In this document: positions 5,104 through 50,474 of the stretch, in pieces | How positions within the stretch are numbered: the first letter of the stretch is position 1 | Layout: every line of letters begins with the position of its first letter | Source of the DNA: Bacteroidales bacterium | Lineage (GTDB): Bacteria; Bacteroidota; Bacteroidia; Bacteroidales; P3 | Direction of reading: 5' to 3' | DNA length: 64,000 nt | NCBI GenBank assembly: GCA_031257915.1 | Contig: JAIRNR010000003.1 | Span: 7,670-71,669, forward strand | Position numbers and translations under genes: made by a program | The notes under the pieces: generated by a model | What the model saw: only the letters and a program-made list of their open reading frames with translations | Databases searched by the model: none | What the model was told of the DNA's origin: nothing

Positions 5104-5305
5104 AGGGCAAACCTTAAGTTTACAGTGAAATAAAAACTGGGGGTTAAATTTTTACTTTTGTTGTATTAAAGTAAGAAATTAACCAACTAACAGAGGTAAA
5201 CTATCAGGTATTTATAACACTTATTCTTTAATGAAAATTTATAAAGATTTGCGGTTGTAATTTATTTGTTATCAGCAAATAAACTTGTTTAAATGCGTTA
5301 GCCCT
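5104..5305. repeat. MITE-like repeat, long variant (arm AGGGCAAACCTTAAG at 5104-5118, inverted arm TTTAAATGCGTTAGCCCT at 5288-5305)
   Basis: The right-hand ~95 bp are about 85-90 percent identical by eye to the element at 37224-37332. The left arm matches the arms at 37765 and 50475. Confidence 0.6.
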
Positions 5306-5475
5306 GATCCTTTTGCGTTTCTTTGATATTTTTTATTCTTTTTTCATTATATTTGTTTTTTATTTGTATTACGAATAAGCAAAATCAAGCAAATATAAAA
5401 ATCAATACGCAAAATCAAACAAAAACAACCAAAAAAGCAAATAGTTTGTATTGTACATCAATTAATTATTTTATT

Positions 5476-35906: not shown

Positions 35907-37220
35907 ATGAAGATTACGATAGTAGGAACAGGCTATGTAGGTCTTGTGACAGGTGTATGTTTTGCCGAAGTAGGCATTGACGTTTGTTGTGTTGATGTTG
36001 ATAAAGAAAAAATAGTCAAATTAAAAAAGGGTATCTCACCCATCTATGAGCAGGGTTTGGAGGAAATGCTGCTCAATAATATTGAAAGAGGGCGGATTAC
36101 TTTTTCCGATTCTCTGAAAGAGGGGATGAAAGATGCGGAAGTTATTTTTTCTGCCGTAGGCACTCCGCCTGACGAAGACGGCAGTGCGGATTTGCGCTAT
36201 GTTCTTGATGTCGCTCACGAGATAGGGCGCAATATGAACGAATACGTTCTTGTTGTAACAAAAAGTACCGTTCCTGTCGGTACTGCCGAAAAAGTACGTG
36301 TGGCAATAGAAGAAGAACTTACTGCAAGGGGTGTTGATATTAAGTTTGACATTGCATCAAATCCCGAATTTTTAAAAGAAGGTACGGCAATAAATGATTT
36401 TATGTACCCTGAAAGAATTGTTGTCGGCGTAAGTTCTATTCGCGGACAGGAAGTAATGGCACGTCTTTACAAACCGTTTACTCTTAATGGTCATCCTATA
36501 ATTTTTATGGATATTCCGTCTGCCGAAATGACCAAATATGCCGCGAACTCAATGCTTGCAACCCGAATCAGTTTTATGAACGACATTGCTAATTTGTGCG
36601 AACTTGTGGGAGCTGATGTTAATGCAGTGCGTAAGGGTATAGGTAGCGATACTCGTATAGGCAGTAAATTTTTATACCCGGGTATTGGCTATGGGGGCAG
36701 TTGCTTTCCGAAAGATGTGAAAGCACTTATTAAAACTGCTTCCGACAACAATTATAAAATGGGGGTTTTGTCTGCTGTTGAGGAAGTGAATGAAACGCAG
36801 AAATCGCTGATGTTTCATAAATTTATGGCTCACTTTGACGGTAAAGTTAAAGGTATGACCGTTGGTTTTTGGGGTTTGGCATTTAAGCCCGGCACGGACG
36901 ACATGCGTGAAGCACCATCGCTTGTAATGATAGAAAAACTTCGTAAGGCAGGTGTCAATATACGTGCATACGATCCTGTATCAATGCCCGAAAGCAAACG
37001 CCGCATAGGTAATGCAATTACATATTGTAAAGATATGTATGAAACGGCTTATAAGGTAGATGCACTTTTCCTGATTACCGAGTGGACAGAGTTTCGTTTT
37101 CCGGACTGGAAAAAAATTGCTTCTAATTTAAAAAACAAAGTGTTTTTTGATGGTCGCAATCTCTACGAGAAAAAAGAACTGCAACAGGAAGGATTTACTT
37201 ATTACGGCGTTGGGTTGTAG
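35907..37220 (+). CDS. ugd: UDP-glucose 6-dehydrogenase
   Basis: MKITIVGTGYVGLVTG Rossmann fold, catalytic GYGGSCFPKD, and the C-terminal UDP-binding domain. Confidence 0.93.
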   Translation: MKITIVGTGYVGLVTGVCFAEVGIDVCCVDVDKEKIVKLKKGISPIYEQGLEEMLLNNIERGRITFSDSLKEGMKDAEVIFSAVGTPPDEDGSADLRYVLDVAHEIGRNMNEYVLVVTKSTVPVGTAEKVRVAIEEELTARGVDIKFDIASNPEFLKEGTAINDFMYPERIVVGVSSIRGQEVMARLYKPFTLNGHPIIFMDIPSAEMTKYAANSMLATRISFMNDIANLCELVGADVNAVRKGIGSDTRIGSKFLYPGIGYGGSCFPKDVKALIKTASDNNYKMGVLSAVEEVNETQKSLMFHKFMAHFDGKVKGMTVGFWGLAFKPGTDDMREAPSLVMIEKLRKAGVNIRAYDPVSMPESKRRIGNAITYCKDMYETAYKVDALFLITEWTEFRFPDWKKIASNLKNKVFFDGRNLYEKKELQQEGFTYYGVGL

Positions 37221-37223
37221 TTG

Positions 37224-37332
37224 CAGGGCTAACGCGTTTATAATGCTTATTCTTGATGAAAATTTATAAAAATTTGCGTTTGTAATTTATTCGTTATCAA
37301 CAAATTAACTTGTTTAAATGTGTTGACCCTCG
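37224..37332. mobile_element. MITE-like element (~105 bp) with imperfect 17-18 bp terminal inverted repeats and a 9-bp target duplication
   Basis: Arms AGGGCTAACGCGTTTATA (37225-) and TTTAAATGTGTTGACCCT (-37330). TTGTAGTTG flanks both ends (37215-37223 and 37333-37341). No ORF inside. Confidence 0.7.
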
Positions 37333-37387
37333 TTGTAGTTGAAATTTCAAATAAAAACAAGTATCTTTGTATGAGATTTCAAATATT

Positions 37388-37708
37388 ATGGTGCAAAAGA
37401 ATGACACTTTTTCTTTACGTCTAAAAAAAATAATGCCTGAAGTTGGTGAGAATATTAAACTGGCACGGCTTCGGCGGGGGTTTTCTGCGGCACTTATAGC
37501 CGAGAGAGCAAACATAGCAACATCAACATTATGGCTAATTGAAAAGGGTAGCGGAAGCGTATCTTTTGGAAGTTACGCAAAAGTACTGTTTGTTCTCGGA
37601 TTAGAAAAAGATTTGCTGCACCTTGCAAAAGACGACATACTTGGAAGAAAATTGCAAGATGCAGAGATATTAACCAAAAAACGTGCGCCAAAACGAATGA
37701 TTGTATGA
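37388..37708 (+). CDS. XRE-family HTH regulator, HipB-like (orphan)
   Basis: VGENIKLARLRRGFSAALIAERANIATSTLWLIEKG is an HTH_3 motif. A TATCTTTG box lies about 25 nt upstream. Confidence 0.75.
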   Translation: MVQKNDTFSLRLKKIMPEVGENIKLARLRRGFSAALIAERANIATSTLWLIEKGSGSVSFGSYAKVLFVLGLEKDLLHLAKDDILGRKLQDAEILTKKRAPKRMIV

Positions 37709-37753
37709 AGAAGTTGCAGAATAATGTACCCCAATTTTAAGATCAATAGTCAA

Positions 37754-37783
37754 GGTTGACCCTGAGGGCAAACGCATTTAAAA
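37754..37783. repeat. back-to-back repeat arms GGTTGACCCT-G-AGGGCAAACGCATTTAAAA
   Basis: A right-arm core is joined to a left arm with a single-nt spacer. It ends 1 nt before the vapC stop codon. Confidence 0.65.
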
Positions 37784-37784
37784 T

Positions 37785-38180
37785 TTACAGTAATTGCAGT
37801 CCGCTTATTCTCTTAAAATGATTTTTATTGAAAGTGACTATCGGTAAGTTACTATAGACAGCAGTAGTGGCAATAAATAAATCATTTAGTTCTATTATTT
37901 GGTTTGCTCTTTTCAGATTTTGATATATGTTTGCTGATAAGATTGCTATTTCAGAATTAAAAGGGATTTGTTTTATTATATTAAATAATGTGTCCCAAAA
38001 TTCTGTTTCCTGTTCATTTTTTATTCCATTAAATATTTCAAAAACGGTAATTGTAGAAATGGCAAGATTGTAATTGTCAATTAATTCTGTTAGCAAAGCT
38101 TTATCTTTATTTGACTTGCGGTAATAATCAATAAAGATGGAAGTATCTACGAGTATATCTTTGCTGTCCATCTTTTCCAC
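37785..38180 (-). CDS. vapC: PIN-domain toxin VapC
   Basis: ILVDTSIFIDY (Asp1), VFEIFNG (Glu), LNDLFIATTA (Asp), and a TFN tail. 131 aa. Confidence 0.85.
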   Translation of the reverse strand: MEKMDSKDILVDTSIFIDYYRKSNKDKALLTELIDNYNLAISTITVFEIFNGIKNEQETEFWDTLFNIIKQIPFNSEIAILSANIYQNLKRANQIIELNDLFIATTAVYSNLPIVTFNKNHFKRISGLQLL

Positions 38181-38419
38181 GCTTTTTGATTTTCTAAATA
38201 ATTAGCATATTGTTCATCAGACATAGTCGGACCTGATAATAACAATTCTTTTAATTTTATTTTTTTATTATCGGCACTTTTTTTATGCGCATAATTGTTC
38301 TGTATAAGACATTGTATATCTGCCAATATCCGTTGCTTATCAGTAATGGGCATATTGACAATAGCGTGCATTATTTGGTCGTAATTTAACGACGGTTGAT
38401 ATGGCGTTGTTGTTTTCAT
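38147..38419 (-). CDS. putative VapB-type antitoxin
   Basis: 90-aa ORF overlapping the vapC start. A TACCTTTG box lies upstream on the minus strand (about 38433-38440). Confidence 0.55.
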   Translation of the reverse strand: MKTTTPYQPSLNYDQIMHAIVNMPITDKQRILADIQCLIQNNYAHKKSADNKKIKLKELLLSGPTMSDEQYANYLENQKAWKRWTAKIYS

Positions 38420-38629
38420 ATTTAATAACTCTCAACAAAGGTACAAAAAATTGATACTACCTTAAAATACTAAAATAATGGTCTGAAAAGGGGTACCCTA
38501 TAGGCATTTTGGTATTATTTTTGTACTTTTGCTTGATATGAAACGAACATATAAAAAGCCTGACATCCAATCAAATGATTGTTCGACAGACCTGAATTTG
38601 GCTTTGGGTGCGGCTCTAATTATAACTAT

Positions 38630-42134: not shown

Positions 42135-43404
42135 TCATAGAAATTCTTTTTCCGTTTTTAAATGCAACAACAAATGCATCACGAAACCCCTTTGCCTGAA
42201 TTTCCTGTAATAAATTCTTTGCTTGCGAAAGGTCTGTTTCCTCGCCGCTGCAATACTTGTAAACACCGTTTTCCTGATACTTGCTTATATTTTGCAGCAC
42301 ATTAAATTCGGGCGAGTTAAGCGGTTTATTTATAGATGACGAAGCGAATTGCACTTTGAAAATAATTGTTTCTGCGGCAGGTGTGGTTGCGGGCGCATTT
42401 GTAGTTTGGGCAGCAGGTGGGATTGTAGTTTGGGTCGCAGGTGGGGTTGCGGGTGCATTTGTAGTTTGGGCAGCAGGTGGGATTGTAGTTTGGGTCGCAG
42501 GTGGAGTTGTTGTCTGGGTCGCAGATGGAGTTGTGGTCTGGGTTGCAGGCGCAATTGTGGTCTGGGTAGCAGATGGGGTAGCAGATGAAATAGCAGAACT
42601 AACCCCCGCTTGATTTCCGAATCCTTCAACTTGATATTTATACTCCCTGAAAGCATTTAAAAGCGAAATTGCAATTTTGTCCTGTCCGTCGGCAGAACTT
42701 AAAAATTCTTCCTCTTCAGGATTGCTGATAAATCCGATTTCAGTAAGGACAGATGGCATCGTACACCCCCAAAGAACGACAAATCCTGCTTGAAAAACAC
42801 CGCGATTCGGCGTATTTAACAGAGTGCCGTACTGTTTTTGAATTTTTTGTGCAAAACTTAGACTTTGGTCTAAGTAGGCATTTTGGTACATTGAAAAAAT
42901 TATATAGGCATCGGGCGAATTGGGGTCGAAACCATTATAATTTTTTTCATAGTTTTGTTCTTCAAGAATAGCGGCATTTTCTTTTCGCGCGACATTTAAA
43001 TTCAAATCACTTTTGTGAAGCCCCATAACCCATGTTTCAACTCCACGCGTAGCAGTATTGTTTTCTACGGCATTGCAATGAATGGAAATAAATAAGTCGG
43101 CATTATTTCTGTTTGCAATTTTACTGCGTTCGCGCAGTTCTATATCCCTGTCATCCTTACGAGTATAAATAACCCGCACGTCTGAAAAGTTCTGCTGCAC
43201 GAGTGTACCGAATTTTAACGCAACTGCAAGCGCAATATCTTTTTCTTTACTCTTTTTTCCGACCGTACCCGGTTTATCACCTCCATGTCCTGCGTCAATT
43301 ACAAGCGTCTTAACGCTTTTCGTATTTTGAGAAAATCCGCATAAAGGCAATAATGCGAAAAAAATCAATCGAATAAAATATGTTTTCTTGAAAAAAAATT
43401 CCAT
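42115..43404 (-). CDS. N-acetylmuramoyl-L-alanine amidase (Amidase_3) with a Thr/Pro/Ala-rich linker and a C-terminal SPOR domain
   Basis: VIDAGHGGDKPGT, SIHCNA, ETWV. The C-terminal FKVQFASS...AKGFRDAFVVAFKNGKRI is SPOR-like. Confidence 0.9.
   Translation of the reverse strand: MEFFFKKTYFIRLIFFALLPLCGFSQNTKSVKTLVIDAGHGGDKPGTVGKKSKEKDIALAVALKFGTLVQQNFSDVRVIYTRKDDRDIELRERSKIANRNNADLFISIHCNAVENNTATRGVETWVMGLHKSDLNLNVARKENAAILEEQNYEKNYNGFDPNSPDAYIIFSMYQNAYLDQSLSFAQKIQKQYGTLLNTPNRGVFQAGFVVLWGCTMPSVLTEIGFISNPEEEEFLSSADGQDKIAISLLNAFREYKYQVEGFGNQAGVSSAISSATPSATQTTIAPATQTTTPSATQTTTPPATQTTIPPAAQTTNAPATPPATQTTIPPAAQTTNAPATTPAAETIIFKVQFASSSINKPLNSPEFNVLQNISKYQENGVYKYCSGEETDLSQAKNLLQEIQAKGFRDAFVVAFKNGKRISMSEALRK
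42375..42590 (-). repeat. in-frame tandem repeats encoding (P/A)PATQTT(I/T) units, including a ~60-bp perfect-looking duplication
   Basis: GCATTTGTAGTTTGGGCAGCAGGTGGGATTGTAGTTTGGGTCGCAGGTGG occurs twice in tandem (about 42395-42510). Confidence 0.85.
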
Positions 43405-50256: not shown

Positions 50257-50330
50257 AGATTTATTATTTTCAATTTCACACGAAGTTAGTAAAAAACTCA
50301 ATATTCTTATTCAGAGCTCTTCACCCGGCC

Positions 50331-50463
50331 AGGGTCAACGCATTAAAATTTTAATTCCCTTATTTACAGATGTTTATAAATCTAATTTTTACCAAATTAT
50401 GAAATATTTCTATATGTAACTTGCTGATTAACACTATTGTATAATTTTTAATGCGTTGACCCT
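50331..50463. mobile_element. MITE-like element (133 bp) with perfect 18-bp terminal inverted repeats AGGGTCAACGCATTAAAA
   Basis: Left arm at 50331-50348 and right arm at 50446-50463 are exact reverse complements. (CT)CTTCACCCGGC lies outside both ends (50317-50329 and 50462/4-50474). The interior is AT-rich with no ORF. Confidence 0.75.
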
Positions 50464-50474
50464 CTTCACCCGGC

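Follow-up and report, generated by a model that had tools for sequence, protein, structure and literature searches.

What is the short, non-coding piece of DNA that begins three bases past the ugd stop codon of this Bacteroidales genome, and how did it get there? An earlier note, made from the letters alone, had read it as a MITE-like insertion of about 105 bp inside a 9-bp target-site duplication. We analyzed the 64-kb window (the whole stretch of DNA under study, 64,000 nucleotides) together with the rest of its host genome, a draft of a gut-type Bacteroidales (2.49 Mb in 109 contigs, 86% complete). Overall, our data led us to conclude, with a probability of roughly 0.93, that the element at 37224-37331 is a decayed MITE copy derived from an ISAs1-family insertion sequence (IS). 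The features on which this reading rests are collected in Table 1.

Table 1. Features of the ugd locus and related elements (window positions unless a contig is named).
Feature	Position	Strand	Basis or remark
ugd, UDP-glucose 6-dehydrogenase-type nucleotide-sugar dehydrogenase, 437 aa, TAG at 37218-37220	35907..37220	+	ORF, Pfam, TIGR03026
Left copy of the 10-bp target-site duplication GTTGTAGTTG	37214..37223	.	includes ugd stop codon
MITE copy, non-coding, subfamily B, 108 bp (full length 140 bp), 32-bp internal deletion	37224..37331	+	own-genome BLAST and alignment
Left terminal inverted repeat remnant CAGGGCTAACGC, 12/19 nt kept	37224..37235	+	alignment with full-length copies
Right terminal inverted repeat, inward reading GAGGGTCAACACATTTAAA, 2 mismatches to consensus (1 at the tip base)	37313..37331	-	end scan
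Right copy of the 10-bp target-site duplication GTTGTAGTTG	37332..37341	.	sequence and flank comparison
TATCTTTG, presumed HTH promoter -7 box, 30 nt right of the element	37362..37369	+	sole exact TAnnTTTG in 37150-37450
Small XRE/HipB-like helix-turn-helix (HTH) gene, 106 aa from ATG	37388..37708	+	mechanical ORF start is TTG 37367
Solo left-type end GAGGGCAAACGCATTTAAA, abutting right-end-like fragment ...GTTGACCCTG (37755-37764); 2 nt from vapC stop	37764..37782	+	end scan
Left-truncated subfamily-B copy, 87% identity to the ugd copy	5211..5306	+	C1:12880-12975
Second family member in the window, 135-bp subfamily, exact 10-bp duplication TTCACCCGGC	50330..50464	+	C1:57999-58133
Autonomous-type IS, 1322 bp, ends CAGGGGCAACGCATTTAAA and CAGGGTCAACGCATTATAA, single 364-aa ORF	C12:11154-12475		end pairing and profile search

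The flanking direct repeat found by the repeat finder is 10 bp long, one base more than had been proposed. The 9-mer that the earlier note had singled out, TTGTAGTTG, is real and has exactly two copies in the window (37215-37223 and 37333-37341). Shuffled sequence contained at least two matches to this 9-mer per window in 14 of 100 shuffles, and the 9-mer repeat taken alone is weak evidence for an insertion. The 10-bp repeat draws its weight from its position, because its copies immediately adjoin the two tips of an element that is present many times in the genome, with other copies likewise flanked by 10-bp repeats. Across the junctions the sequence runs ...TAC GGC GTT GGG TTG TAG TTG / CAGGGCTAACGCG ... 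GTGTTGACCCTC / GTTGTAGTTG AAATTTC..., and the C at 37224 is part of the element, whose first bases are CAGGG. The element that had been placed between the duplications exists, with slightly wider limits and a length of 108 bp. The end of the ORF puts the ugd TAG inside the left duplication copy, in agreement with the earlier note. Terminal inverted repeats had also been claimed and are present, but the left one is only the 12-nt remnant, and the GTTTATA that had been assigned to it is internal sequence. The element lacks any ORF of at least 40 aa and thus carries no transposase.

Family membership was established within the genome itself. The query 37200-37360 returned 35 BLAST matches in its own genome, spanning roughly 37230-37330, and the wider family, with each locus assigned to its best representative, comprises about 100 loci and 11.5 kb (0.46% of the assembly). 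Side-by-side comparison of the copies showed that the complete unit is 140 bp long and that its terminal inverted repeats, CAGGGTCAACGCATTTAAA ... TTTAAATGCGTTGACCCTG, match perfectly over 19 bp. Scanning for ends with the consensus repeat CAGGGTCAACGCATTTAAA at up to four mismatches recovered 134 ends and 39 left-right pairs, which fall into length classes of 140, 135, 120, about 208, 324 and 1322 bp with common ends. Exact 10-bp flanking duplications, each different and without a consensus, accompany 20 of the 39 paired elements, including the ugd copy, and three more have a near-exact one; for the 16 pairs with no recognizable duplication, possible reasons are decay, nested insertions or contigs wrongly joined at identical repeats. 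Each of the 21 copies with a duplication that we examined is intergenic, falling between ORFs of at least 120 aa. The ugd element and its family thus show what is expected of MITEs: they are short, lack a transposase, have terminal inverted repeats and a fixed-length duplication, and are dispersed in many copies. Like the Correia elements of Neisseria, the MaeMITEs of Microcystis and the MITEs of Porphyromonas gingivalis, they are small, AT-rich, non-coding, intergenic and multi-copy, with terminal inverted repeats, a target duplication of fixed length and, in full-length copies, a long hairpin; unlike those, they belong to a different, lineage-restricted sequence family. The copies of one 140-bp subfamily are about 99% identical, which suggests that it was probably active recently. 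Subfamily B, to which the ugd copy belongs, is about 88% identical among copies and therefore older.

Longer variants of the 140-bp element, 178-209 bp in length (C72 7895-8102, C86 18983-19191, C11 41675-41852 and C44 3880-4060), have in common an additional central block of roughly 40-70 bp (...GAAAATATCCATGAAAC/TGTTT..AATTTACACACAGACGAATAAAAATTGAGG...) and form a composite subfamily. At C43 13546-14103, 558 bp between family ends contain a small Cys-rich ferredoxin-like ORF and internal end fragments, a possible small cargo. We rejected a fossil of the vapC 3′ end inside the short elements: the interior alignment scored 29 compared with 27.3 +/- 4.9 for shuffles, and 166 of 500 shuffles reached that score. 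The sequence inward of the solo end at 37764-37782 resembles the MITE interior no more than chance would allow.

The origin of the family is indicated by a single autonomous-type IS on another contig, C12. Its 364-aa ORF matches the ISAs1-family transposase model NF033564, an NCBIfam equivalog, with an E value of 2.2e-112 and 375 bits (cut-off 70), and contains the Pfam domains DDE_Tnp_1_assoc (PF13808) and DDE_Tnp_1 (PF01609). Relatives of this transposase number in the thousands in metagenomes and Bacteroidia, many of them labelled YbfD/YdcC or ISAs1 family transposase. Only one full-length IS was assembled, in addition to fragments, and it has no duplication of its own. The ISfinder length range of the ISAs1 family is 1200-1500 bp, into which the 1322-bp IS fits, and MITE-type derivatives are expected for DDE insertion sequences. 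We know of no biochemical characterization of ISAs1 transposition chemistry. Published hallmarks of this family (PMC11946415) are a 10-bp direct repeat and terminal repeats that start with CAGGG and measure 14-22 bp. The elements studied here have 19-bp repeats starting with CAGGG, a 10-bp direct repeat and a cognate IS in the same genome. In these respects the family resembles ISAs1 of Aeromonas salmonicida, IS1358, IS1548 and the E. coli H-repeat (YbfD/YdcC), a likeness that extends to the single DDE transposase ORF of the partner IS; in contrast to such insertion sequences, the ugd element is 108 bp long, lacks a transposase and shares only the ends with the IS, its interior being unrelated. 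The IS is linked to the short elements by two intermediates: a 324-bp element that retains the 3′ end of the transposase between both family ends, and the 120-bp subfamily, whose first 34-36 nt are exactly those of the IS. The proposal that this is a MITE-like transposon insertion was borne out by the roughly 100 family loci, by their 10-bp duplications and by the presence of an autonomous IS of the ISAs1 family whose ends are the same. In a limited literature search, we found no specific paper on ISAs1-derived MITEs or on MITEs in termite-type Bacteroidales. The ISAs1 family is poorly studied, and this genome offers a clean natural data set in which one autonomous IS is accompanied by deletion intermediates, by several short subfamilies and by 20 exact 10-bp duplications.

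These observations also bear on whether the 10-bp repeat is a coincidence, with the element being a dispersed non-transposon repeat, either REP/BIME-like or a regulatory palindrome, that was spread by recombination. The frequency of the 9-mer in shuffled sequence would allow this, as would the outcome of our search for an empty site: scans of metagenome contigs with the predicted sequence ...GGGTTGTAGTTGAAATTTC, which holds a single GTTGTAGTTG, and with the ugd 3′ end found nothing, and conspecific sequence without the element was not found among the contigs scanned. However, 20 independent copies with different exact 10-bp duplications precisely at their tips, an IS with identical-type ends and an ISAs1 transposase in the same genome, and the deletion intermediates that connect that IS with the short elements make a coincidence extremely improbable. 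The insertion of a MITE at ugd is deduced from the behavior of the family.

Compared with its relatives, the ugd copy is considerably decayed. Its nearest siblings in the genome are 87-92% identical to it by BLAST (8-13% divergence). In its right terminal repeat, 17 of 19 nt match the consensus, and the tip reads CCCTC compared with CCCTG in the family. Alignment with full-length subfamily-B copies revealed 32 missing base pairs, the order being CAGGGC[T]AACGC, then the absent segment ATTTAAAAC...TTATGC, and then GTTTATAATGC. This deletion removed 7 nt of the left terminal repeat and moved the internal GTTTATA up to the left tip, where its resemblance to ATTTAAA is due to chance. The lost segment is flanked by two similar short motifs, CGCATTTA and TGCGTTTA, and a slippage-type origin is plausible. 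None of the other family copies in the genome carries the deletion, which therefore probably arose in place. Most likely, the ugd copy is an old, decayed insertion that would be immobile by now.

The same family complicates genome assembly, and we considered whether the contiguity of ugd, element and HTH gene might be an artefact of metagenome assembly, in which two different repeat copies had been joined into a chimera. The assembly does break at identical family copies: 15 family loci lie at contig ends, where the copies typically hold 118 nt of the element, a length that fits contigs built with k = 119 (compare the related public record k119_...). The repeat family is therefore one cause of assembly fragmentation. 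Moreover, the independent Logan assembly of SRR14710907, reached by an exact-protein look-up, itself splits inside the ugd copy, at 37282/37283. Nevertheless, its two contigs carry the left and the right junction separately and match the window base for base. The same 10-bp duplication on both flanks would not be expected from the joining of two loci. In addition, the ugd copy shares no more than 87-92% identity with any other copy and is shorter than the assembler word, so it is spanned by unique words. An artefact is therefore very improbable. For annotation and assembly, the family is of practical value in that it accounts for many contig breaks and marks lineage-specific insertions.

Beyond this genome, the short elements are sparse. 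A search of 120 other genomes from the same taxonomic family did not recover the 140-bp unit and yielded marginal matches only. A Bacteroidales MAG record (JAIROC010000554) has one copy of 118 nt at a contig end, the sole copy in that genome. In the sister species, genome G001, three places carry exact ends of 19-25 nt, and there are also one copy of the 135-bp type that is 78% identical and fragments of ISAs1 transposase at contig ends. Therefore, the system of IS and short elements is common to the genus, and the subfamilies described here appear to be species-level expansions, as far as a sister genome that is only 78% complete allows such a comparison.

We next turn to what the insertion did to its surroundings. 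The ugd product has the N-terminal, central and C-terminal UDPG_MGDP_dh domains of Pfam and scores 460 bits with TIGR03026, above the cut-off. The 10-bp target spans the last base of a Gly codon, a Leu codon, TAG and TTG. The left duplication copy preserves the end of the gene, and the protein ends in ...YYGVGL*, like its same-genus orthologue (...GFTYYGVGL*); therefore, the end of ugd is unchanged, and the insertion is without effect on the Ugd protein. On the other side lies the presumed promoter of the HTH gene. TAnnTTTG is the Bacteroidota-type -7 motif, known from Bacteroides promoters. The earlier note had rightly put the box to the right of the element, although at 37354-37361, eight bases short of its actual position. 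The right duplication copy restores the sequence upstream of the box, so the core promoter of the HTH gene should be intact. This gene likely starts at ATG 37388, has no paralogue in the genome, and matches Pfam HTH_31 (E 5e-5) and the Y4mF/HipB-type model TIGR03070 (E 1.7e-5), both below cut-off. Nor is there support for a composite element spanning 37224-37764 with the HTH gene inside it, and we rejected this idea: the flanks do not match and the HTH gene is single-copy.

No biological consequence or regulatory role of the ugd copy has been demonstrated. The copy might have been co-opted, either as a 3′ hairpin of the ugd mRNA that stabilizes the message or partly terminates it, or as an insulator or upstream promoter element acting on the HTH gene. 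Full-length family copies form long hairpins through their ends in RNA folding (z about -7), and the + strand RNA of the ugd copy still pairs through its degraded ends, at -23.2 kcal/mol and z -3.3. Its placement would also suit such a role, with a start 3 nt past the ugd stop and an end 30 nt before the -7 box. However, when folded with its natural flanks, the copy shows no advantage over shuffled sequence (z -0.14). A search for terminator-like sites was negative, and there was no Rfam match in 36800-38600. The pairing of the ends is a by-product of inverted repeats, and the decay of the copy argues against selection. Therefore, we consider co-option distinctly unlikely.

The interval around the element differs from that of related genomes. 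From the ugd stop (37220) to the start of the following SDR gene (38630), which we read as UDP-glucuronate decarboxylase (uxs), the distance is 1.4 kb, containing the element, the XRE/HipB-like HTH gene, the element-end junction at 37754-37783 and a vapBC pair. In three other genera of the family, uxs directly follows ugd. In G001, the only same-genus genome, a GC-rich repeat spacer of 344 bp separates ugd from uxs, which is followed by rmlD; this interval contains neither the element nor the HTH gene nor vapBC, and while ugd is 79% identical, the sequence downstream of it is not alignable. The element therefore sits in a lineage-specific accessory patch. This 1.4 kb of accessory DNA parts ugd from uxs here and not in the relatives, and the repeat family marks such insertions. 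Because the target includes the ugd stop as well as the first bases of the HTH upstream region, the element would have been inserted after the arrival of the HTH gene. The G001 spacer (L010 2020-2360) begins right after the ugd stop with the short tandem repeat GAATGTAGAAT(T), followed by GC-rich direct repeats of about 60 bp, in contrast to the AT-rich patch of the window.

On the basis of these comparisons, we propose a putative course of events, in which mobilization in trans and the order of steps remain conditional. A DDE transposase supplied by the 1322-bp IS on C12, or by a relative, would have bound in trans the 19-bp ends, CAGGG[T/C][C/A]AACGCATTTAAA, of a 140-bp element. This element would then have been joined into a staggered 10-bp cut across GTTGTAGTTG, at a site that in the single-duplication model read ...GGGTTGTAGTTG joined straight to AAATTTCAAAT. 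Gap repair would have doubled the 10 bp, keeping the native ugd stop on the left and restoring the promoter-upstream sequence of the HTH gene on the right. Subsequently, the loss of 32 bp between CGCATTTA and TGCGTTTA, the mutation of the right tip and the divergence of 8-13% would have left an immobile fossil.

Additional observations concern the way in which family elements are arranged. They recur as a right end, a gap of 0-10 bp and a left end, at 50464/50475 and 37764/37765 in the window and at C12 12475/12485, C90 278/288, C86 18972/18983 and C43 13544/13546. Twice, the gap coincides exactly with the 10-bp duplication belonging to the neighboring copy. Chance would account for about 0.1 such pairs within 40 bp; at least four strict ones were observed. 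This pattern suggests insertion beside resident ends, or tandem intermediates.

A second repeat family, with ends TATA[AG]TGTACCCC...TTAAGGTG, is found in the window at 37720-37757 and 38455-38502, bracketing 37754-38419. Its ends also pair elsewhere in the genome, forming short versions of 131-600 bp, and on C83 the family adjoins a transposase C-terminus that we read as IS3-like. Its left-type and right-type ends, in inverted orientation, enclose the ISAs1-type end junction, vapC and vapB in a unit of 783 bp. No flanking duplication was seen around this unit, which may be a toxin-antitoxin cassette bounded by IS ends. A hybrid arm, CAGGGCAAACCTTAA, that would unite both repeat families was tried and rejected, as its occurrences do not run on consistently into the second family.

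We speculate that short elements of the ISAs1 type prefer sites beside resident ends and, together with the second family of IS ends, build and bound small accessory cassettes between conserved genes, although we regard this as rather unlikely. If it were true, the lone HTH gene, the vapBC pair and a vapBC paralogue on C90 would be examples of such cassettes, and the ugd element would be one part of a transposon-nucleated 1.4-kb island that split an ancestral ugd-uxs pair. On C90, the paralogue (42343-43117; identities of about 41% and 28%) is separated by 30 nt from the right tip of a 135-bp copy of the family, a placement that echoes the window, where the solo end sits beside the vapC stop.
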